Shown piece after piece: positions 1 to 9,027 of a DNA stretch of 9,596 nucleotides (positions are counted from its first letter, which is position 1; each line of letters opens with the position of its first letter). This DNA comes from a virus (Duplodnaviria > Heunggongvirae > Uroviricota > Caudoviricetes), in the IMG/VR virus record IMGVR_UViG_2706794686_000013, one strand, 5' to 3'. Below the pieces are notes generated by a model, which ran no database searches, was not told the origin of the DNA, and saw only the letters and a program-made list of their open reading frames with translations. Position numbers and translations under genes: made by a program.

Positions 1-90
1 GAACAGGAGGGACAGCTGATAGAAACAGAAGCCACTGGAGCACCTCAAAAACACCATCATACACTAAATCAGTAAGTTGGCAGCATCACC
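1..90 (-). mobile_element. IS1 insertion sequence, terminal 90 bp (IRL end); element body continues beyond the window start
   Basis: Reverse complement of 1..90 reads ggtgatgctgccaacttactgatttagtgtatgatggtgtttttgaggtgctccagtggcttctgtttctatcagctgtccctcctgttc, which I recognise as the left end of IS1 (same end that abuts cat in Tn9). The InsA start (GTG gct tct gtt tct atc agc tgt ccc) lies at about 33..35 on the minus strand, reading out of the window. Match is from memory of IS1, not a database search. Confidence 0.9.
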
Positions 91-242
91 CCGCCACAGA
101 ACAATTATTGCTTTTGCCGTTGATGACAATAAAGTTTTTATCGCAGGCGTATACCACGGTGGGCAAATCTATGAAACCGATTTTTTATCCAGTGCACCGT
201 AAAACCCCCATCCTTCAGGGCGTGGCGGATATCAAACTTTGG

Positions 243-1325
243 TCATTTTCTCTGGCTGATCTTTACCGGATAACCATCCCGAAGATCAATTAAGTGCTCC
301 GGTTCAGAAGCAAACCATGCATAAGATCCCCACGCCAATTCTGGTATTGCCTTTTTAAAAGGCAGAGCACTTCTGTCCATAAATGCCGTAAGGAATGCAA
401 GATTTTTCTCGCTGAACCCAGCGTCAATAGCCAAATGAGTGAGAGTAACTTTTCGTTCCCTGTTTATAGGCCCATCTGTCGCAACTACTTCAGTGAAAAC
501 TACAAGCATGTCCGAACCCGTTCGGTCCTCTCCCAAATCAATCAAAATAATATCTGGAAGTGCTTTTGAGGCATCAATATTCAGCCCCAATGCTTTTGCC
601 AATACATCATCCTGAGCAACAACTTTATTCCCGGATTCAGACAACCAGAGCACAGTTGGATTCTTAAGAAAATTAGGAGCAAAAACTTCGATGACGGCCT
701 TAGCTATTGTACTTGACGGGCCCGGAGCTAAAGTTCTCTTCTCTCCATTTGGGAAAGTGACGACTACGGCATCAGCAGCAATCACTGCCCCTGATTTCAA
801 TAAACGCAACCTAGCAAGAGCGGCTTTGTTCAAATGATTTTCTTGCCAGGAACTTATTGCACTCAGCAGCGAATCTCCTTCAAGCCCGGCATCAAAGAGT
901 GCTGCAAAAGAGCGATTCAAACTGTAACGAGGACGAGAGGATGTGGTGGGTATACCTTTACGCTCAACAATTGCATTGCAAGGTATTAGGCCATTTTTTA
1001 TAGTTTCATCACGTATTGGCTCACGCGTATTTTCCGCATACCATGCATCAGCAGGCCTTATCTTTTGTTTAGAGAAAGTCATCTTTACCCAGCTTTCTCT
1101 GGACGCATCATCAGTAAGAGCAGCCTGCGAATCTCCCATACTTACAACCTGGCTGGGCCTTATCCATCGCCCCAGCCCCTCAACCGCACCAGCATAAAAC
1201 ATGACAAAAATTGTTTTTGCAGCTATTTCCCGAATTAAATATCCACGATTCTCAGTCCCTTCAGGGAAAATTAATTGTAATCTTTCCCGGATAACATTCA
1301 ATGGGGGAACAACAGGCAGATTCAT
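243..1325 (-). CDS. Putative restriction endonuclease partner of the adjacent methyltransferase (type II R-M R subunit, inferred from context)
   Basis: 360-aa ORF whose ATG overlaps the stop of the upstream methyltransferase by 4 nt (ATGA at 1322..1325), so translationally coupled. GGAG lies about 10 nt upstream of the ATG. No catalytic motif confidently identified by eye (possible hhhExK-like strand at NAIVERK); assignment is by genomic context and size only. Confidence 0.45.
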   Translation of the reverse strand: MNLPVVPPLNVIRERLQLIFPEGTENRGYLIREIAAKTIFVMFYAGAVEGLGRWIRPSQVVSMGDSQAALTDDASRESWVKMTFSKQKIRPADAWYAENTREPIRDETIKNGLIPCNAIVERKGIPTTSSRPRYSLNRSFAALFDAGLEGDSLLSAISSWQENHLNKAALARLRLLKSGAVIAADAVVVTFPNGEKRTLAPGPSSTIAKAVIEVFAPNFLKNPTVLWLSESGNKVVAQDDVLAKALGLNIDASKALPDIILIDLGEDRTGSDMLVVFTEVVATDGPINRERKVTLTHLAIDAGFSEKNLAFLTAFMDRSALPFKKAIPELAWGSYAWFASEPEHLIDLRDGYPVKISQRK

Positions 1326-3154
1326 GCAATCATCACTCCATAGAAACCAGCGATAGTTCTCTCAATAATCCGTCTGTGGACGCCAGCATCAATTAACGAT
1401 TGAATCTCCATCACCTGCTCCAGAGAAGGCAACGGGATTGAATTCAATTCATAGGCCGAAACAGCAACACTTCCGCTTATACACCTGAACGCCCGATCGA
1501 CAACATGCGAATTAAGTAGCATATCAATAACATCAGGGCGAACCGCAGAGAACAATCCGTTTGAATATACAATATTAATATGGTTTTCAACTACTACGCC
1601 ACCAGTTTCATCTATAAATCCCTGAGGTAAAATTGCCGCTAAAATCCTTCTGTCCTGTTCCTTCGATGTTGTCCGCTGAACAAGCACACATTCAGATTTT
1701 GTCACAAGGAAACCCTGTTGTGGGGTTATATCGATATAGGGAACATGATTTTTTCTGTCTGCACTAAAACGAAAACCAGCTGAAGTTATTGATTCCGCCC
1801 AGACTAATGGGTAGCTATTTTTTCCTTTCGTCGTACGCAACTGCGACTTAAATCGATTCCAGACTAACTGACCTGTAGAGACTGAGTATCCCAGATCAGC
1901 TAAACGCGTAGACATCTGTTTTAATACATTAAGAAAACAGGCATCATCTTTAACGCGTGGCAAAAGCCACGTTGCTCCACCTTTTTCTATATCAACATTA
2001 CCTATTTTCTCAATTTTTGCTTTGTTCAACCCCTTAGGGACAAGTGAGGATACCTGGGCCCGAACTTTATGTTCTCCCGCCTTGAATGCTGTCAACATTG
2101 TTTCCTGGAGAACATCGTCAAAGACCCCATCCCTGTCAGTGACGAAATCAAGGGCATACGGAGTAGTTTTTTCGGTCAAAAGGGTTCGCAGCGCGGTGAA
2201 ATACTGCCCACCAAGAAAAGAAGTTGGCGTAAGAAATGCAATAACTCCTGTTTTCTCTTTAACCATGCGAACAGCTAAGTCGGTGAACAATCCATATAGA
2301 TTTGCATGACCAAATAACGAACGAGAATATTTTTCTCTCGTTTTAATATCGAGAGTGACACGTCCGTAAGGCGGATTCCCTACCACAAGATCATAACCAG
2401 AAAATTTATCTTGCTGAAGCGCATCAGCAACAATAATTGTATCTTCAGGCAATCTACGTTTTACCTTTACACATAGTGGCATTAGTACAGATTCGAGCAA
2501 TACCAAACTCATCCAAGCCGCAAATGGATCGATCTCTATCCCCTTTAAACGACGACTGATTCTCCTCAACATCCATTCAGGGGAAGACCCCTTGTCTTTT
2601 TTTAACATTCGAATGGCTACTGGTGCCAAAAATGCACCGCCACCACACGCAGGATCAATAACCGATGCATGAGAAAAATCAACACCAGACTTTTCAGCCA
2701 GGTCCAAGAGACGCGCTACCAAAGGTGGGGGGGTATAGTAAGCCCCCAATTCCGAACGGTAAGCGGATGGCAGCATTACCGTATAAATTGACCCAATCAG
2801 ATATCCAGCGTCCTCCGCCGGAAATTGAGCAATAAGCTCACCTGTTCGTTCAGCGAGCTCGCGTGCATCACATGGAATGTCTTCTATGTAAACAGTGTGC
2901 GGTACTGCCCTCATTTTAATGCTGCTTTTTTGCTTTTTTGCAAGGGTATCCCAATATGCAGCTACGATGCTGAAGCAGTATGAGCGGGCATGCATCAACC
3001 TTGACTGCCCGGTTTTGTAATTGCCCGCATAACCTTTGGCCATGGCTTTACAAGTTTGATATCTTTCCAGATTAGAAAACTCATTATCTGTAAAAAAATC
3101 AAAATGTTGCACATTCATAATGTAAAATCCTAATGTATCAAACATGCGGGCCAT
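1322..3154 (-). CDS. N6-adenine-specific DNA methyltransferase, gamma-class motif order
   Basis: 610-aa ORF with AdoMet-binding motif I (IDPACGGGAFL) followed by catalytic motif IV (VVGNPPYG) and a motif X-like GAYYTPP upstream, then about 330 aa C-terminal to NPPY consistent with a target recognition domain. Start is ambiguous between ATG 3154, ATG 3145 and ATG about 3118 (the last has AGGA upstream). Confidence 0.85.
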   Translation of the reverse strand: MARMFDTLGFYIMNVQHFDFFTDNEFSNLERYQTCKAMAKGYAGNYKTGQSRLMHARSYCFSIVAAYWDTLAKKQKSSIKMRAVPHTVYIEDIPCDARELAERTGELIAQFPAEDAGYLIGSIYTVMLPSAYRSELGAYYTPPPLVARLLDLAEKSGVDFSHASVIDPACGGGAFLAPVAIRMLKKDKGSSPEWMLRRISRRLKGIEIDPFAAWMSLVLLESVLMPLCVKVKRRLPEDTIIVADALQQDKFSGYDLVVGNPPYGRVTLDIKTREKYSRSLFGHANLYGLFTDLAVRMVKEKTGVIAFLTPTSFLGGQYFTALRTLLTEKTTPYALDFVTDRDGVFDDVLQETMLTAFKAGEHKVRAQVSSLVPKGLNKAKIEKIGNVDIEKGGATWLLPRVKDDACFLNVLKQMSTRLADLGYSVSTGQLVWNRFKSQLRTTKGKNSYPLVWAESITSAGFRFSADRKNHVPYIDITPQQGFLVTKSECVLVQRTTSKEQDRRILAAILPQGFIDETGGVVVENHINIVYSNGLFSAVRPDVIDMLLNSHVVDRAFRCISGSVAVSAYELNSIPLPSLEQVMEIQSLIDAGVHRRIIERTIAGFYGVMIA

Positions 3155-3368
3155 AACATCTCATGGTGGCGCATAGCAAACTGGCCCGAAGAATATCACG
3201 CACCAAGTCGATCTCATAACCCGTTATGACAATAAATCTTTGTAGCTGAACTCACTTGGTGATTTGTCAATCATTCCTGGCCTCCAGTTCGTCCTGAATC
3301 TCTTTATCGAGTTCACCGTATTTGTTAGTCCTCATCACTCACGACTTGACTTCCAGAAATAACCTTGA

Positions 3369-3725
3369 TTATTCGGGGCTATATTTTGTCACCCTGCGTA
3401 TCCGCGCTTTCGCATTACGCTCAATCTGGATTAGCTTTTCTATATTTTTTCGCCTTTCCCGCTCCTCCTGGCGCAAGAGCCTTACATCATCTGCCAGTCT
3501 GGTTTCTCTTTTCGCCACAGAGAGCATCCAGTCAAATGGCTCCACAACTGCACCGCAAATTTTACAGCGGACCTGACGCTCTTTTTCGTCAACCCGGACA
3601 GAAGCGTGATGGCAATATGGTCTTTCCGATGGCTCATAAAGAAAATTAACCTGATTACGAGGGTTATCCTCTTTTACCGGAAATAAAACAATATTGCTTA
3701 ACTCATCTTCTGGTTTTATTTCCAT
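3369..3725 (-). CDS. Hypothetical prophage protein; possible Cys/His zinc-ribbon followed by a basic coiled-coil tail
   Basis: Track ORF 3369..3782 begins at a GTG; an in-frame ATG at 3723..3725 (MEIKPEDEL...) has a strong SD (aggagaggag) 5-8 nt upstream and is preferred. Contains CHH...x14...CKIC and an Arg/Glu-rich C-terminus (RLLRQEERERRKNIEKLIQIERNAKARIRR). Same strand and tight packing with neighbouring genes. Confidence 0.5.
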   Translation of the reverse strand: MEIKPEDELSNIVLFPVKEDNPRNQVNFLYEPSERPYCHHASVRVDEKERQVRCKICGAVVEPFDWMLSVAKRETRLADDVRLLRQEERERRKNIEKLIQIERNAKARIRRVTKYSPE

Positions 3726-3782
3726 GCTCCTCTCCTTTGATGCGAATGCCAGCGGTAATTGAAGCCTGATAGCTAATTTCAC

Positions 3783-4205
3783 TCACAGTACCGCCTCCTG
3801 AAAATCACCCTGATAGAAAGCCGGTACACGCTGCATAACTTCACTCTTCCGGCACTCGCGACAGATTATGTTCTGATGTCTGTCGTAGCGGCGTATTTCT
3901 CCGTCCGGTAATGACCAGATAAGGTCCGGATCAACCACAGATGGTTTCTTCAGCTTTGCCCTCGAGAGTTTTTTGCGGGCGTTTTGCCAGTCCTTACGAG
4001 CCTGTTCAGACGGGAATAACCCGTAGCCAGAGTTGTATACATCCCCACTGGCAACCAGCTCTCTGGCGAGAACGCTTATTAAATATCTTGTCGCCCCGGT
4101 TTTAGCTTCCAGTTGTCGTAACGTCTCGCGCCCACTCTGGCGTACGAGTTCAACAACCTGCCCCTTAATTTTTTCCCGCTCTTCCTGTGTAAATACTTTT
4201 GCCAT
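3783..4205 (-). CDS. Hypothetical prophage protein (CxxC-containing)
   Basis: Track ORF 3783..4220 starts at TTG; the in-frame ATG at 4203..4205 (MAKVFTQEERE...) with a GGGGG run about 6 nt upstream is preferred. 15-nt spacer from the upstream gene stop (4221..4223). Contains ICRECRK. No family recognised. Confidence 0.5.
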   Translation of the reverse strand: MAKVFTQEEREKIKGQVVELVRQSGRETLRQLEAKTGATRYLISVLARELVASGDVYNSGYGLFPSEQARKDWQNARKKLSRAKLKKPSVVDPDLIWSLPDGEIRRYDRHQNIICRECRKSEVMQRVPAFYQGDFQEAVL

Positions 4206-4220
4206 AAGCGCCCCCGGCAA

Positions 4221-4946
4221 TCACTTTTCCGACACAATACGACCGGAGGAATCGACAATCTGTCGAACAATATCCCGGTGCTTGTTCAGCTCCCGCAACG
4301 CGGCGCAGACACGCTCCCACTTCTGGACATGACTTTTCGCCCGACGCAGTTCGCGGTTTGCCATATGCAGCGATGGTAAAACCAGGTCATCCGCTTGCGT
4401 TTCGGTGAACGATGGCAACGACTGCACAATGTCCGCCACAGTTTCTGTTTTAATTTCTTCCTGTGTTGCAGCTTCCTGTACCGGTAACGCAACACCTGCT
4501 GGCTGAGGAAAGACTTTACCATCCGTTTCCGCTATGGATGCGGCTTTCGGCTCTGCCGGTAAATCAGCGCCCGGTATGCAGTACCGAAATTTACCGCCCT
4601 GATTCACGCGAATCAGACGCCCTTTGCTGATTGCCATGGCCAGCGATGAATTCGCCCGGCGGGAGGTAATCCCGAACATCAGTGCCAGCTCATCCGCCGT
4701 TTGTGGGCCATGTTGTTCAATCGCCTCAGTCAGCATTTGCGCTGTCACTTTCGGTACCGGTGACACTGGTTCACTTTCACCAGCCTGAATCAGCCACCAC
4801 ATCGAACCCTTGTTATCCGCTTCACCACGGCGCTTCAGTTTCCACAGTTCGTTGACCGCATCTTCACGGCTGATTCCAAGGCGGGACGCCACCACATGTG
4901 AAGAGGCTCTTTTCAGTGCTTTCAGTGCGTCAAATACAGTTTCCAT
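4221..4946 (-). CDS. Hypothetical prophage protein (acidic, Pro/Ala-rich central linker)
   Basis: Track ORF 4221..4964 starts at TTG; ATG at 4944..4946 ([12 protein letters not shown]...) with GGAGGA 8 nt upstream is preferred. Lies 21 nt downstream of the DnaC-like gene stop in the same operon. No family recognised with confidence. Confidence 0.55.
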
Positions 4947-4967
4947 TAAAACATCCTCCAACAAAAA

Positions 4968-5465
4968 TTACTTCACAACTCCCGGAAAGCTGACATTTGA
5001 ACGCCAGCTATCCCAGTTAAACGTCACCCACCGACAACCGTTCATGGTCATGCGGTCCATAATCCTCTCACCAAGAAGCGTGCTCATTGCGGCATGATTC
5101 AGGTTTGTTAACATCCCGACACTGCACAGTGATGCTGTCCGGCGATCAATTATCTGGTGCAATACCACCTGCTCGTTTTTCGTCTCCCGCTGAATGCCTA
5201 TTTCATCCAGGACCAGCAAATCAACCCCGCAAAGCTCCTGTAAAAATTTTTCACCGGATTTGCCGTTGTCGTAGCTGTCATGCAACACGCTCATGACATC
5301 AGACTCGGTGACGATAATCACGCTGCGCCCCTTCGCCATCAGCCGGTTACCCATCGCCGCTGCAAGGTGATTTTTCCCGGTGCCGGTTTTACCGCTGAAC
5401 ACAAAATTCGTGCACCCGGTCATCAGTTCGTCAGCTATGGATTTGGCCTGGCTCAGCGCGTATTT
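4968..5465 (-). CDS. DnaC-like helicase loader / phage replication protein P-analogue (AAA+ ATPase), 5' end lost in N-run
   Basis: Visible portion reads ...KYALSQAKSIADELMTGCTNFVFSGKTGTGKNHLAAAMGNRL..., with the Walker A SGKTGTGKNHLAAA that closely matches E. coli DnaC (SGKPGTGKNHLAAA), and a Walker B-like LLVLDEIG. The frame is open right up to the N-run at 5466, so the true start is inside the unresolved block. Confidence 0.85.
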   Translation of the reverse strand, partial: KYALSQAKSIADELMTGCTNFVFSGKTGTGKNHLAAAMGNRLMAKGRSVIIVTESDVMSVLHDSYDNGKSGEKFLQELCGVDLLVLDEIGIQRETKNEQVVLHQIIDRRTASLCSVGMLTNLNHAAMSTLLGERIMDRMTMNGCRWVTFNWDSWRSNVSFPGVVK

Positions 5466-5686
5466 NNNNNNNNNNNNNNNNNNNNNNNNNNNNNNNNNNN
5501 NNNNNNNNNNNNNNNNNNNNNNNNNNNNNNNNNNNNNNNNNNNNNNNNNNNNNNNNNNNNNNNNNNNNNNNNNNNNNNNNNNNNNNNNNNNNNNNNNNNN
5601 NNNNNNNNNNNNNNNNNNNNNNNNNNNNNNNNNNNNNNNNNNNNNNNNNNNNNNNNNNNNNNNNNNNNNNNNNNNNNNNNNNNNNN
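5466..5686. other. Unresolved/masked bases (221 N)
   Basis: Continuous run of n. Covers the 3' end of the O-like gene and the 5' end of the DnaC-like gene; ORF-track residues shown as X are not real. Confidence 1.
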
Positions 5687-6673
5687 TACCGGGAGCAACC
5701 AGGGGTTTTCAAAATTCCGGTCCGGCCCAAAAAACGTCGTCGCTCGCTGAACAAATTCCGTTCCCGCTTTCCCGGTCGCCGCCAGGTATCTCGCGTAACG
5801 CCTCACACCATCCAGCATGGTCTCTGGTGGCACCCCCTCGCGCAATCTGGCCTTCCAGGCACTGAATGCGGATTTCTTCGGGTTTGCCCCGGCACGCAAC
5901 GGGTATTCCCGCCAGACCTGTTCGAACACATCCGGATAATCCACTCGTCCCACAGGCTGCCCGGTGTTTTCCGGGGCTACCCGATCGGCTTCCCGCTGAA
6001 TGGCGGAATCGGCTTCAGGCTGCTGCAGTTGGAGTGATTGCTCCGGCCTTGCGGTCATCACCTGCTGCACAGCGCCCGAATCGGCTTTCAGCGCATACGC
6101 TGAATCGGCTTCCGGTGTCGAGCCTGCTGGCTGACCAGGATTGACGGTCTGAACATCCCCTGCCTGGTTCGTGGCGTTTTTTACGCCATGGACCATAGTG
6201 TTTTGATCTTCTTTATCTGTATCTTTATCTGTATCTGTCGTGACTCGTCGTGACATGTGCGTGACATTTCGTGACGCGCCGTGACAATCGCCATTTTGTT
6301 CCCGCTTTCTTTCCCTCTCTCGCTGCGCCCTCTTGCGCTCTGCAGGAGATTTTGCGGTTTGCGAAATATTGCCGTTGTCCTCTTTAAGCACCTGGCGTTT
6401 TTCCCATCCAGTGATTAAATCACCATCAAGTACCCGCCCCTGCATCGTCTGCAAAATTGAATCAATTACCTCTTCTGTCACGTCGAGCGCACTTGCCAAA
6501 TCTTCTGTCGTGACATCAATGTGACCTCGCGTGACATTTCGTGACGCGCTCACCAGGAGGTGGATATACACTGCCATCACTGTTGCAATTGGCTGCCCTG
6601 ACACCCTGGCAATTGTTCGCCACTTAGGGTCATTTGGCATGTCATGCCATAATCTGAGCCAGGCGTTAGCCAT
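5687..6673 (-). CDS. Phage replication initiation protein (lambda O-like role), 3' end lost in N-run
   Basis: ATG at 6671..6673 (MANAWLRLWHDMPNDPKWRTIARVSGQ...) with SD agaggtg upstream; the track start at 6679 is GTG. Sits immediately upstream of the DnaC-like gene and contains the iteron arrays within its coding sequence, as lambda O does. C-terminal region visible to 5687 (...FENPWLLPV) then runs into N. Confidence 0.6.
6211..6234 (+). repeat. Perfect 12-bp tandem duplication (ctttatctgtat x2) in an AT-rich stretch adjoining iteron array A
   Basis: 6211..6222 and 6223..6234 are identical; encodes the TDKDTDKD stretch of the initiator on the opposite strand. Confidence 0.8.
6240..6285. repeat. 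Iteron-like array A: five helically phased GTGAC(A) repeats
   Basis: GTGAC begins at 6240, 6250, 6261, 6271 and 6281 (spacing 10, 11, 10, 10 bp). Contains the 21-mer gcgtgacatttcgtgacgcgc at 6259..6279. Confidence 0.75.
6510..6549. repeat. Iteron-like array B: four helically phased GTGAC repeats plus one inverted copy upstream
   Basis: GTGAC begins at 6510, 6521, 6531 and 6541 (spacing 11, 10, 10 bp); inverted GTCAC at 6477..6481. The exact 21-mer gcgtgacatttcgtgacgcgc recurs at 6529..6549, 270 bp from the copy in array A. Confidence 0.75.
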
Positions 6674-6744
6674 ACTCACCTCTTCTGATACCGAATCTTT
6701 TTACTCACGAGTTGCCGGGAGCGATTCGATATGGCTATTGTCAG

Positions 6745-7170
6745 TCAATGTACTGCCACAGCATTTCCTGCCGGGCCACCACGGTTCATCTGATTGAAAC
6801 CGGCGATTGCCACTGCGACAAAATCATCAGCGTCTCTCACCAGTCGTTCATGCGTCTCCACCAGTTCCCGAAAATAAGCTGAACTGTGGCTGCGCATTCG
6901 AGCCACCAGCGGAGGTGGCATTGCCCTTTCGATCGCAGGTAACAACGCCTGAATTTTTTCAACAGCGTCAGGGGTGTCTTTATCCAGCCAACGGAAAATC
7001 TTTTGGGTGTTGAGATAAAGCGTGTTGTGCTTGCTGTCGTTATGCAGAACCGGAAACGTCATTCCCAGTTCGAAATAAACCCTGGTTATTTCAGCTGCCG
7101 GAACTTTTTCACCGTCCGGATGCGCCCAGGCTTTCATCGCCATGCGGATGTGTTCATGCTTGATTTTCAT
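6745..7170 (-). CDS. ydaT: YdaT-like protein (CII-like regulator position in a Rac-type immunity region)
   Basis: 141-aa ORF starting MKIKHEHIRMAMKAWAHPDGEK..., which I associate with the YdaT family of Rac-like prophages (recall, unverified). Sits between the cro-like gene and the replication initiator. Its ATG overlaps the cro-like stop (ATGA at 7167..7170); GGGGG SD upstream. Confidence 0.5.
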   Translation of the reverse strand: MKIKHEHIRMAMKAWAHPDGEKVPAAEITRVYFELGMTFPVLHNDSKHNTLYLNTQKIFRWLDKDTPDAVEKIQALLPAIERAMPPPLVARMRSHSSAYFRELVETHERLVRDADDFVAVAIAGFNQMNRGGPAGNAVAVH

Positions 7171-7420
7171 GAATCAACCCCCGCCGATGGTTGTGTGTTA
7201 GCCTGAAACTCAGCAGGCAAGCCGTCAGTTGGGTTGGGGTAGGTTTTACTGTCAATCTCATGTGGGGTCACCACCCATCCCGTTGCTTCACACCAACGTA
7301 ATATTTTTTCTCCTGTAAGTTTTGCACGCCCCGTTATAACGTGGCTGACCATCCCTTGGGATGCGCCAACAATCTCAGCAAATGAACTCTGGGTTATATG
7401 AAAATGATGCAAATATTCTC
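7167..7420 (-). CDS. Cro/YdaS-like HTH regulator, 5' end lost in N-run
   Basis: Visible C-terminal 83 aa: EYLHHFHITQSSFAEIVGASQGMVSHVITGRAKLTGEKILRWCEATGWVVTPHEIDSK... The helix-turn-helix (SSFAEIVGAS-QGMVSHV) is typical of Cro/XRE. No in-frame ATG before the N-run, so the start is in the masked block. First gene of the leftward operon. Confidence 0.6.
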
Positions 7421-7717
7421 NNNNNNNNNNNNNNNNNNNNNNNNNNNNNNNNNNNNNNNNNNNNNNNNNNNNNNNNNNNNNNNNNNNNNNNNNNNNNNNN
7501 NNNNNNNNNNNNNNNNNNNNNNNNNNNNNNNNNNNNNNNNNNNNNNNNNNNNNNNNNNNNNNNNNNNNNNNNNNNNNNNNNNNNNNNNNNNNNNNNNNNN
7601 NNNNNNNNNNNNNNNNNNNNNNNNNNNNNNNNNNNNNNNNNNNNNNNNNNNNNNNNNNNNNNNNNNNNNNNNNNNNNNNNNNNNNNNNNNNNNNNNNNNN
7701 NNNNNNNNNNNNNNNNN
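7421..7717. other. Unresolved/masked bases (297 N)
   Basis: Continuous run of n covering the 5' ends of both divergent regulator genes and the whole intergenic operator/promoter region between them. Confidence 1.
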
Positions 7718-8090
7718 ACAAGGGGCGGTAAGTCACTACCTAAATGGTCAAACCCCACTAAACCTTGAGGCTGTTCTAAAGTTTGCTGGCTTACTGAAAG
7801 TTCCCCCTGAGTCAATCAGGCCAGACATGGTAGATTTGCTGCAAATTGCAAGGATGTATTGTCGAGAACCACAGCAAGATAACATAGTCGCATTACCAGC
7901 AGACACAGAACAAACAGAGGATGAACTACCGTTTGCCGTAGAGCCGATGGAACGAGATTTAATCCATACGTTCAGAGCTTTTCCGAAAGAAGATCAAGAA
8001 CACATGCTTCAGGAGATGAAAGATAAAAAAGAATCAATGGATCGTACGGTTGCGCGGTGGTTAGCTGCACAAAAAGGCCGTCGCGCCTAA
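7718..8090 (+). CDS. HTH repressor-like regulator (CI/RacR-position; possible PaaR-type regulator of the downstream toxin-antitoxin pair), 5' end lost in N-run
   Basis: Visible 123 aa begin mid-HTH (QGAVSHYLNGQTPLNLEAVLKFAGLLKVPPE...), a recognition-helix signature of XRE-family repressors. Divergent to the cro-like gene. Stop at 8088..8090, only 19 nt before the antitoxin start. No S24 peptidase-like C-terminal domain seen. Confidence 0.6.
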
Positions 8091-8109
8091 ATCAGAGGAG
8101 ATATGTAAA

Positions 8110-8304
8110 ATGAGTACAGTCCTTTCCCCAATGGTTTCAGAATTTGAGACAGTTGAGCAAGAAAATAGTTACAACGAATGGCTGCGGGCCAAAGTAGCAG
8201 CAAGCCTCGCGGATCCCCGCCCGGCGATTCCGCATGATGAGGTAATGGCGGAAATGGAACAAATTATTGCCCAAATTGCTGCTGCAACTCACAGAGGTGA
8301 ATAA
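8110..8304 (+). CDS. paaA: Type II antitoxin, ParE-associated (PaaA-like)
   Basis: 64-aa ORF with GAGGAG SD 9 nt upstream. Its stop overlaps the toxin ATG (TAATG at 8302..8306), the classic antitoxin-toxin arrangement. Sequence (SPMVSEFETVEQENSYNEWLRAKVAASLADPRPAIPHDEV) resembles my recollection of the PaaA2 antitoxin of E. coli O157 prophages (unverified). Confidence 0.65.
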   Translation: MSTVLSPMVSEFETVEQENSYNEWLRAKVAASLADPRPAIPHDEVMAEMEQIIAQIAAATHRGE

Positions 8305-8594
8305 TGTTACCCGTTTTATGGCTACCATCTGCTCGTGATGATTTGCGCCAGATCGTAGCCTACATAGCTAAAGAAAATCCCGCGGCAGCACGCAGAATGA
8401 AAATTCGAATTGAAACATCCGTTTTGCCGCTCACAGAGCATCCTTACCTGTATCCTCCAAGCGAGCGAGTTCTTGGTCTTCGTGAAATTGTAACTCATCC
8501 TAACTACATCATCCTTTACCGAGTAACAGCATCAAGCATAGAAGTAGTAAATATTGTGCATTCTCGAAGACAGTATCCAGGCAAAAACAGTTAA
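8304..8594 (+). CDS. parE: ParE/RelE-family toxin
   Basis: 96-aa ORF (MLPVLWLPSARDDLRQIVAYIAKENPAAARRMKIRIE...LGLREIVTHPNYIILYRVTASSIEVVNIVHSRRQYP) showing the conserved ParE/RelE pattern: W.P.A..DL..I..YI near the N-terminus and GLRE...nYiIlYRV...ieVvnIvH near the C-terminus. Confidence 0.85.
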   Translation: MLPVLWLPSARDDLRQIVAYIAKENPAAARRMKIRIETSVLPLTEHPYLYPPSERVLGLREIVTHPNYIILYRVTASSIEVVNIVHSRRQYPGKNS

Positions 8595-8695: not shown

Positions 8696-8874
8696 TTCAG
8701 GCGTCAACCCACCCCGCCCCACAGAATGCAGGGCAATACTTCGAGTTACCAGACAGTGGTCAGGGGTTAAGTAGCCAGCCCGAGGCGTAAGAACATGACG
8801 GCAGGGTTCAATCTTTAACTATGCAGCAGGTTTTTTGTTCCGCCACCCCGGCGTTAAGGGGAAATGAGGTCAGC

Positions 8875-9027
8875 ATGGATACTATCGATCTTGGCAACAA
8901 CGAATCTCTGGTGTGCGGCGTGTTCCCTAACCAGGATGGAACGTTTACCGCCATGACGTATACCAAAAGCAAAACGTTTAAAACCGAATCTGGCGCGCGT
9001 TGCTGGTTAGCCAGAAACACTGACTGA
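8875..9027 (+). CDS. Small hypothetical prophage protein (50 aa)
   Basis: ATG at 8875 with GAGG 5 nt upstream (MDTIDLGNNESLVCGVFPNQDGTFTAMTYTKSKTFKTESGARCWLARNTD). The track ORF starts earlier (8821) but that ATG lacks an SD. Reminiscent of tiny early-left proteins of Rac-like prophages; identity unverified. Confidence 0.45.
   Translation: MDTIDLGNNESLVCGVFPNQDGTFTAMTYTKSKTFKTESGARCWLARNTD

Follow-up and report, generated by a model that had tools for sequence, protein, structure and literature searches.

A two-gene BsuBI/PstI-family cassette, very probably an orthodox restriction-modification system, in an IS1-truncated lambdoid prophage of Shigella sonnei

The locus

The window is the whole stretch of 9,596 nucleotides that was analysed, a tailed-phage sequence with the IMG/VR record IMGVR_UViG_2706794686_000013. 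This work focuses on a cassette of two genes, a methyltransferase (M) and its partner (R), and on what surrounds it. The features are these:

1..90, strand not given: terminal 90 bp of IS1 (100% identity to IS1 ends), truncating the prophage just beyond the cassette
92..202, plus strand: 3' remnant of a parE toxin gene, 36 codons by translation, convergent and cut by IS1
243..1325, minus strand: R, a gene for a BsuBI/PstI-family type II restriction endonuclease by its domain matches, 360 aa
1322..1325, minus strand: ATGA stop/start overlap, visible in the sequence itself, by which M and R are translationally coupled
1322..3154, minus strand: M, longest open reading frame 610 aa, likely true start at ATG 3118 giving 598 aa
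3119..3232, minus strand: conserved cassette leader with a candidate extended -10 promoter and a ribosome binding site for the 3118 start

A sequence-only reading of this DNA had described two minus-strand open reading frames, a 610-aa methyltransferase and a 360-aa protein, joined by an ATGA overlap. Both frames are found at these coordinates, and so is the overlap. The junction runs ...GCA TGA / ATG AAT..., so that the two genes share 4 nt, and a GGAG lies about 10 nt 5' of the R start. The same reading held that the cassette is much poorer in GC than the neighboring replication genes. The direction of this contrast stands but its size is about half of what was claimed: the cassette is 43.6% GC (60-bp windows have a mean of 43.7% and an interquartile range of 41.7-46.7%) versus 51.7% for the replication block at 3369-7170 (interquartile range 48.3-55.0%). 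GC3 differs as well, at 36-37% in the cassette versus 51-64% in the replication block.

The leader was delimited by a three-way alignment with Kluyvera and Citrobacter prophages, in which the sequences nearly coincide between about 3232 and the start codon and are unrelated farther upstream. The candidate extended -10 element, TGaTATTCT at about 3199-3190, was assigned by eye and is conserved across the three genera; a consensus scan of the spacer found no canonical sigma-70 site. It had also been said that no controller (C) protein gene is visible upstream, and this is correct. The spacer at 3155-3368 holds no open reading frame longer than 32 aa, so a C-protein gene does not fit there. The conserved leader, at about 115 bp, is too short for one, and in the Kluyvera and Citrobacter prophage loci the flanks enclose no further conserved gene. 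The cassette is outside the C-protein-controlled type II restriction-modification systems.

The methyltransferase

Motif I of M, DPACGGGAFL, occupies residues 167-176 and motif IV, VVGNPPYG, residues 257-264 (of 610), and the roughly 340 residues C-terminal to motif IV give the gamma-class order. M scores above the Pfam cut-offs for both Eco57I (PF07669, 51.4 bits with a cut-off of 25.3) and N6_Mtase (PF02384, 37.6 bits with a cut-off of 20.4). It matches the PADLOC MTase_II model PDLC03338 over residues 7-608 (E 1.8e-300), and the closest solved structure is M.TaqI. Judged by these motifs and family matches, M is a gamma-class N6-adenine DNA methyltransferase, which is what the motifs had been taken to mean from the start.

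The length of 610 aa needs a small correction. It is the length of the longest open reading frame, but nearly all of the 120 homologues listed are about 590-600 aa long, with 93-98% query coverage. Most of them are 598 aa and align from residue 13, so the real start is probably Met13 at ATG 3118, which has an AGGA upstream of it. The protein would then have 598 aa and the upstream gap would be about 250 bp.

The restriction endonuclease

The sequence-only reading could assign no motif to the 360-aa protein and proposed that BsuBI/PstI-family and similar nuclease folds be looked for in it. The BsuBI/PstI domains are there. R combines a DNA-binding HTH domain at its N-terminus with a PD-(D/E)XK-type nuclease domain at its C-terminus; these correspond to Pfam PF17728 (residues 10-172, E 1.2e-30, 106.6 bits) and PF06616 (residues 188-349, E 9.3e-45, 152.2 bits), each with a cut-off of 27 bits. 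The PADLOC REase_II model PDLC03589 covers it over its full length (E 2.8e-128); the PADLOC models for M and R are both derived from REBASE. NCBIfam has no model for R. By sequence its sole relative in the PDB is the restriction enzyme SdaI (2ixs), which aligns over residues 96-349 with an E value of 1.8e-16. SdaI is also the sole significant Foldseek match to a low-confidence model of R (E 3e-10, TM about 0.3). That AlphaFold model, built from a 15-sequence alignment, reaches a pLDDT of only 61.5 and stays under 50 in its catalytic half; taken alone, the fold evidence is therefore weak.

In the alignment R keeps E213, K234, P257-D258, E279-x-V281 and R291, all of which are invariant in its subfamily, R.EcoGIII and SdaI. 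The lysine of the SdaI 'EAVK' segment is an alanine in R (EVVAT). The same position holds a threonine in R.EcoGIII, which is biochemically active, so the alanine is no sign of inactivation. This homology places the 360-aa partner among the type II restriction endonucleases of the BsuBI/PstI family.

Prophage setting and distribution

The host element is a decayed lambda-like prophage of Shigella sonnei, an IS1-truncated remnant that is fixed in this species. Positions 1..90 are 100% identical to the IS1 ends of phage P1 and of thousands of E. coli records, and beyond the IS1 the S. sonnei chromosomes continue with chromosomal ydf genes. The downstream limit of the prophage context around the cassette is marked by the parE remnant, which lies outside the restriction-modification system; an intact parD-parE stands at the same place in E. 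coli FDAARGOS_943 and in one further locus. Except for the 90-bp IS1 end, the phage collection gave no 'near' DNA match.

The cassette is about 3.0 kb long and sits in a ninR 'moron' position, between the replication genes and RusA/DUF968/Q. It has the same ninR position in prophages of E. coli FDAARGOS_943, Kluyvera and Citrobacter. Its homology starts about 115 bp upstream of M and stops within about 15 nt of the R stop codon. The presence of the same cassette, sharply bounded, in the unrelated lambdoid prophages of Kluyvera and Citrobacter supports the suggestion that it is horizontally acquired cargo. We see it as another clean example of a restriction-modification 'moron' that moves between lambdoid prophages, a unit of about 3 kb made of promoter, M and R with no controller protein.

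The exact proteins, WP_001053102.1 and WP_000113425.1, occur on at least 1000 S. sonnei contigs, where they are annotated as 'BsuBI/PstI family type II restriction endonuclease' and 'N-6 DNA methylase', and the exact R sequence is indexed in 4192 collection blocks. A PADLOC survey of 994 S. sonnei genomes counted 982 type II restriction-modification systems, uniform in content (PMC13293514). S. sonnei appears to have only this one type II system and to carry it almost universally.

The subfamily reaches much further, with 277 species representatives, and forms a widespread and deeply divergent branch of the BsuBI/PstI family. In all 80 loci fetched from other species M lies directly upstream of R on the same strand with a tight junction. 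These loci span the Proteobacteria, Acidobacteria, Chloroflexi, Firmicutes and Bacteroidetes; across them R is 51-68% identical and M, in 77 of them, 42-67% identical. The 4-nt overlap, the constant arrangement in 80/80 loci and the joint moves between prophages all describe two separate, adjacent genes that are inherited together.

The sequence-only reading considered the cassette the best candidate in the window for a novel or poorly described defence module. That view has to be given up. Identical proteins already carry these names in S. sonnei records and the PADLOC models match them. Since public databases already list the cassette as restriction-modification, it cannot count as a new type of defence module. 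It is a standard type II system, one that existing annotation pipelines and finders of defence systems pick up, and its discovery value is small.

The recognition sequence

PstI and BsuBI recognise CTGCAG, and SdaI recognises CCTGCAGG. The BsuBI/PstI family has these two specificities, CTGCAG and CCTGCAGG. [quoted passage not shown] From family precedent our best guess is that the cassette targets CTGCAG or another palindrome with a TGCA core, carrying m6A. CTGCAG itself we would put at somewhat better than an even chance. Since identity to the EcoGIII pair and to SdaI is only about 26% for R and M, a CTGCAG specificity is an extrapolation.

The main alternative is a functional type IIP system with a target other than CTGCAG, either a new specificity or that of another prototype, and we consider this a serious contender that falls a little short of even. 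The low identity to EcoGIII and SdaI speaks for it, as does M, which exceeds M.EcoGIII in length by about 110 aa and resembles it only in the part that begins with motif IV. The family itself has the two specificities mentioned above. On the other hand, the post-catalytic C-terminal part of M is presumably its target-recognition domain, and residues 418-585 of M are homologous to residues 297-465 of M.EcoGIII (29% identity, E 5e-19). Moreover, three endonucleases of the subfamily, 52-60% identical to R, are paired with intact PstI/EcoGIII-type methylases of 511-537 aa.

Site avoidance was scored for all 64 palindromic hexamers by comparing observed counts with Markov expectations, with no control set and with generic palindrome avoidance present. 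In the 1.10 Mb flanking 80 homologous cassettes, CTGCAG had an observed/expected ratio of 0.77 in this uncontrolled test and ranked 20 of 64; the most depleted palindromic hexamer was CTCGAG at 0.53, again with no control set. Likewise uncontrolled, CTGCAG was about 2-fold enriched inside the cassettes versus the flanks. There is no special avoidance of CTGCAG here, a result that would fit another target, but with no control set the tests are uninformative for either view. In the window there are 2 CTGCAG sites, both outside the cassette, and 4 ATGCAT sites, all inside it; these numbers are too small for inference.

The searchable literature yielded no restriction or methylation phenotype for this subfamily, no S. 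sonnei methylome and nothing under the accession numbers. A bolder version of the alternative is that this divergent BsuBI/PstI branch targets neither CTGCAG nor CCTGCAGG, and that the cassette gives S. sonnei an uncharacterised, lineage-wide m6A motif and a barrier to gene transfer. We find this version rather unlikely. If it were true, the near-universality of the cassette would mean a lineage-wide m6A motif in an important pathogen that has yet to be characterised. In this version the cassette may also account, through post-segregational killing, for the retention of a prophage remnant truncated by IS1. Whatever the site is, once determined it would be useful for improving transformation, for reading nanopore and SMRT methylation signals, and for understanding the barriers to plasmid and phage entry in S. 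sonnei.

Function and rival explanations

We are confident that M and R make up an orthodox type IIP restriction-modification system of the BsuBI/PstI family, self-contained in the ninR region of a lambdoid prophage. The type II architecture that had been proposed from gene order and coupling is borne out by the family matches of both proteins together with the ATGA overlap. On host and prophage DNA M would mark an adenine within a short palindromic site, and R would cut incoming DNA that does not carry this mark. Transcription of both genes would begin in the conserved leader, about 115 bp long, at the putative promoter, with a start predicted near 3183. With M placed before R and translation coupled, no R should be made without M or before it, and this arrangement may stand in for a controller protein. 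Phage and plasmid DNA without the modification would be kept out of the lysogen. The cassette may, as other type II systems can, also work as an addiction module and so stabilise the prophage remnant.

It had been suggested that the 360-aa protein could equally be an uncharacterised effector, acting with the methyltransferase in a new methylation-associated defence system with no restriction involved. The attraction of this idea was that no motif could be assigned by eye, and M does show weak matches to BREX PglX and MADS MAD2. In NCBIfam M has only sub-threshold matches, and these two lie far below, at 17-37 bits versus curated cut-offs of 400-900; the conserved unit is only two genes with no BREX or MADS partners, and we reject both assignments. 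R carries both BsuBI/PstI Pfam domains far above threshold, matches a REBASE-derived endonuclease model end to end, and has a restriction enzyme as its sole structural relative. At the level of homology a non-restriction effector is already refuted, and we give it next to no chance.

A better argument can be made that the cassette is degenerate or silent, with M active as an epigenetic or orphan-like methylase and R inactive or unexpressed in a decayed prophage. The prophage is an IS1-cut remnant in a genome known for pseudogenisation, the scan found no strong promoter, and R lacks the lysine of SdaI. However, R is full length and identical on at least 1000 contigs, it keeps every residue that is invariant across its subfamily, EcoGIII and SdaI, the lysine is equally absent from the active R.EcoGIII, and the leader is conserved across genera. 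One S. sonnei assembly, JBEAAA01, has a -1 frameshift in M next to an intact R, a combination that would be lethal if R were active; should the frameshift be genuine, that strain may carry a silent or inactive R. The frameshift falls in a C7 homopolymer, and the assembly is a draft in which several other genes are split as well, a pattern typical of sequencing error. We also considered phase variation through this C7 tract and rejected it as a conserved feature, since the tract is missing from the Kluyvera and Citrobacter alleles. On balance we think a silent cassette improbable, and we keep to the orthodox restriction-modification system.

Comparison with known systems

The closest comparison is with EcoGIII, a PstI isoschizomer (CTGCAG) found in the lambdoid Stx2a-converting prophages of E. 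coli O104:H4, O145:H28 and O103. Both are type II systems of two genes on one strand, M before R, that overlap by 4 bp and have no C protein. R.EcoGIII has the same two Pfam domains as R, and M.EcoGIII is an N6-adenine methylase homologous to M, the C-terminal region included. The differences are just as clear. Identity is 26% for R and 25.6-29% for M, over part of its length only, as described above. The EcoGIII proteins are smaller, with an M of 489 aa and an R of 317 aa compared to 598/610 and 360 aa here. EcoGIII lies directly downstream of cI in the immunity region, whereas the cassette lies downstream of the replication genes in ninR. With identity at about 26%, we regard the cassette as belonging to the same family as EcoGIII but as a different system.

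SdaI and BsuBI have been listed as one PD-(D/E)XK group (PMC3424549). SdaI is the structural prototype of PF06616/PF17728 and has the PD...E-x-V core and other invariant residues in common with R. It is only about 26% identical to R, which has about 75-95 extra N-terminal residues with no aligned SdaI counterpart; the SdaI segment compared starts at residue 76. PstI and BsuBI themselves, for which we used EcoGIII as a proxy, resemble the cassette in having an R of the same Pfam families and an m6A gamma-class methylase. The PstI genes are divergent, not tandem. A CTGCAG system of Pseudomonas syringae pv. actinidiae is 2.4 kb long, the classical PstI-type size, unlike this subfamily.

The same two modules also exist in fused form. 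The PADLOC model PDLC03359 describes an 840-aa fused methylase-nuclease, presumably the YenI-type fusions, and M matches its positions 28-257 while R matches 595-831. What these enzymes carry in one polypeptide the cassette keeps as two separate, translationally coupled genes.

Identity of the two genes

The cassette consists of two minus-strand genes, and their span (243-3154) agrees with the sequence-only reading:

1322..3154, minus strand: methyltransferase ORF (M), 610 aa as the longest ORF
243..1325, minus strand: second ORF, restriction endonuclease (R), 360 aa

That reading found R unassignable by eye and proposed a check for the BsuBI/PstI family. We ran this check, and R can be assigned. 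Its N-terminal HTH domain (PF17728, residues 10-172, E 1.2e-30) and its nuclease domain (PF06616, residues 188-349, E 9.3e-45) both score far over the gathering cut-offs, and the PADLOC type II REase model covers R end to end (E 2.8e-128). SdaI is its sole relative among solved structures (E 1.8e-16) and the sole significant fold match (E 3e-10, TM ~0.3) of a low-confidence AlphaFold model (pLDDT 61.5). The residues invariant across an alignment of five subfamily members, R.EcoGIII and SdaI are all present in R: E213, K234, P257-D258, E279-x-V281 and R291. The lysine of the SdaI EAVK motif is alanine in R and threonine in R.EcoGIII. Since R.EcoGIII is reported to be biochemically active (PMC3893438), we see no sign of decay in this alanine. 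Judged by these matches, the 360-aa protein is a BsuBI/PstI-family restriction endonuclease.

The claim that M is a gamma-class N6-adenine methyltransferase holds up well. DPACGGGAFL (residues 167-176) is followed by VVGNPPYG (257-264) and then by ~340 residues, which is the gamma-class order. PF07669 and PF02384 both match above cut-off, the PADLOC MTase_II model matches residues 7-608 (E 1.8e-300), and M.TaqI is the closest solved structure. We therefore read the 610/598-aa product as an N6-adenine methyltransferase on sequence grounds. The length of 610 aa is correct for the longest ORF, but the true start is probably the ATG at 3118, giving 598 aa, because nearly all homologues among the 120 matches listed have lengths of ~590-600 aa, their alignments beginning no earlier than residue 13. 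AGGA precedes this ATG.

A C7 homopolymer on the M coding strand (2727-2733) encodes the TPPP of a YYTPPP motif. In the S. sonnei draft assembly JBEAAA01 a -1 frameshift falls exactly at this tract (~8593 of locus L005); M is thereby broken into pieces of 133 and 428 aa, with R left intact. This is probably a sequencing error; genuine slippage would be lethal, or R would have to be silent. The Kluyvera and Citrobacter M alleles lack the tract.

Gene layout and leader

The junction reads GCA-TGA / ATG-AAT, confirming the 4-base ATGA overlap at 1322-1325, and GGAG lies ~10 nt upstream of the R start. In the spacer at 3155-3368 every ORF is 32 aa or shorter, in agreement with the earlier statement that no C-protein ORF is visible there. 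A consensus scan of the spacer found no canonical sigma-70 promoter. The leader does hold a candidate extended -10, TGaTATTCT (~3199-3190), conserved in three genera. A Dam site, GATC at 3210 (3207-3213, minus strand), lies just upstream of it and is kept in the Kluyvera and Citrobacter leaders. The GC content of the cassette is indeed lower than that of the adjacent replication genes, though by less than the sampling suggested: 43.6% vs 51.7% rather than 37-42% vs 55-62%; GC3 is 36-37% vs 51-64%.

Prophage setting

The following features surround the cassette:

1-90: IS1 terminus
92-202: parE remnant, 36 codons, convergent, cut by IS1
3783-4220: DUF977, conserved prophage gene
4221-4964: DUF1627, conserved prophage gene
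6745-7170, minus strand: YdaT_toxin-family gene (E 5e-9), in a cII-like position downstream of a cro-like gene
7398-8090, plus strand: HTH_3 repressor-like gene, partly N-masked, adjoining the immunity region
8110-8304, plus strand: PaaA2 antitoxin (E 3e-23)
8304-8594, plus strand: ParE toxin (E 2e-17), 1-nt start/stop overlap with the PaaA2 gene
8821-9027: DUF1391, conserved prophage gene

ORFs across the N runs at 5466-5686 (221 bases, masking part of the replisome-organiser gene) and 7421-7717 (297 bases, masking part of the repressor/cro region) are uninterpretable. The YdaT_toxin-family gene is placed as in Rac/Qin-type prophages. The repressor-like, PaaA2 and ParE genes (7398-8594) are co-oriented and together adjoin the immunity region, an arrangement we take to resemble the three-component paaR-paaA-parE toxin-antitoxin systems of E. 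coli O157:H7 prophages.

Among 5426 complete E. coli genomes, only 2 have the cassette. One of the two is FDAARGOS_943. Its lambdoid prophage is intact and has the cassette at the ninR "moron" site, with the replication module on one side and parDE, DUF968, RusA and Q on the other; nothing is missing from the parDE pair (L001 11538-12112) or the late region. In S. sonnei chromosomes (cf. L003 11291-13512) a ydfI-like mannitol dehydrogenase gene directly follows IS1, so the half of the prophage with Q and the lysis and structural genes has been deleted.

Distribution and mobility

Exact R is indexed in 4192 assembly-collection blocks, 102 of them with contigs >1 Mb; among these are IS1-rich 4.8-5.0 Mb chromosomes with chromosomal ydf genes directly after IS1. 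By cluster look-up, exact R and exact M are each on at least 1000 contigs. A PADLOC survey counted 982 type II R-M systems, noted as uniform, in 994 S. sonnei genomes (PMC13293514), and we infer that the cassette is the system counted.

Kluyvera and Citrobacter lambdoid prophages encode proteins 86-89% identical, in the same relative position with different neighbours. Their DNA homology to the window runs from ~115 bp upstream of 3118 to within ~15 nt of the R stop codon, so the mobile unit is leader, M and R, ~3.0 kb, without room for a controller gene. Relatives are encoded in 277 species-representative genomes. The M-first order is conserved: all 80 fetched loci (Proteobacteria, Acidobacteria, Chloroflexi, Firmicutes and Bacteroidetes) have a same-strand methyltransferase gene directly upstream of the R relative.

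Proposed mode of action

M would methylate adenine within a short palindrome on resident DNA, and R, probably dimeric in line with SdaI-family enzymes, would cut unmodified incoming DNA. Transcription would begin in the conserved leader, where the candidate extended -10 lies. The M-first order and translational coupling would delay restriction, a role that C proteins fill in other systems. Cells that lose the cassette would be expected to suffer toxicity, by analogy with other type II systems, and this could help explain why S. sonnei as a whole has kept the IS1-truncated prophage fragment.

Recognition sequence

The nearest characterised system among those compared is EcoGIII of Stx2a prophages, a CTGCAG-specific M-to-R pair (PMC3893438). 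Three subfamily REases, 52-60% identical to R, are paired with intact 511-537-aa methylases rather than the long type (~598 aa); the shorter methylases share 31-36% identity with M.EcoGIII along their whole length:

L034 8410-11071: REase with PstI/EcoGIII-type methylase
L036 8407-11059: REase with PstI/EcoGIII-type methylase
L060 767-3995: REase with PstI/EcoGIII-type methylase

They come from three distant lineages: a betaproteobacterial MAG, Desulfurivibrio and Isosphaeraceae. This looks like a methylase swap within the family. It suggests, if only modestly, that either methylase type can stand in for the other, and hence that both have the same specificity. We lean slightly towards CTGCAG; should the site differ, we would mostly expect another palindrome.

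Palindrome-avoidance statistics, computed without a control set, were uninformative about the site. Of the palindromic hexamers, CTCGAG shows the strongest depletion, both in the flanks of the 80 homologous loci (1.10 Mb; O/E 0.53, z -10) and within the cassettes (O/E 0.34), which, with no control set, may be generic avoidance in these GC-rich taxa. The searched literature appears to document no biochemical specificity for this branch. We consider it rather unlikely that the specificity is other than CTGCAG and sets a methylation motif for the whole S. sonnei lineage, and even then its interest would be modest.

Relation to known systems

The sequence-only reading recognised a type II R-M architecture, which the family assignments, overlap and gene order bear out. 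It also ranked the pair first in the window as a possible novel or poorly described defence module, with R a possible uncharacterised effector; this is not supported, R being a BsuBI/PstI REase and both proteins already annotated. The scores of M for BREX PglX and MADS MAD2 fall far below curated thresholds, so neither M nor the cassette belongs to those systems, and with no C gene in the spacer or leader it is not C-controlled. The EcoGIII locus is likewise M-to-R with a 4-bp overlap, but it adjoins cI. R is only 26% identical to R.EcoGIII (E 3e-22) and M 26-29% to M.EcoGIII, with similarity extending to the C-terminal region past the catalytic motifs (E 5e-19); this is too low for the cassette to be EcoGIII itself. 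On sequence-level tests of membership, the cassette belongs with the orthodox type IIP R-M systems of the BsuBI/PstI family, its methylase being a gamma-class m6A enzyme, and its proposed mode of action is like theirs. Identical S. sonnei proteins already carry family names (BsuBI/PstI family type II restriction endonuclease; "N-6 DNA methylase [Shigella sonnei]"), and both proteins are covered from end to end by PADLOC profiles derived from REBASE.
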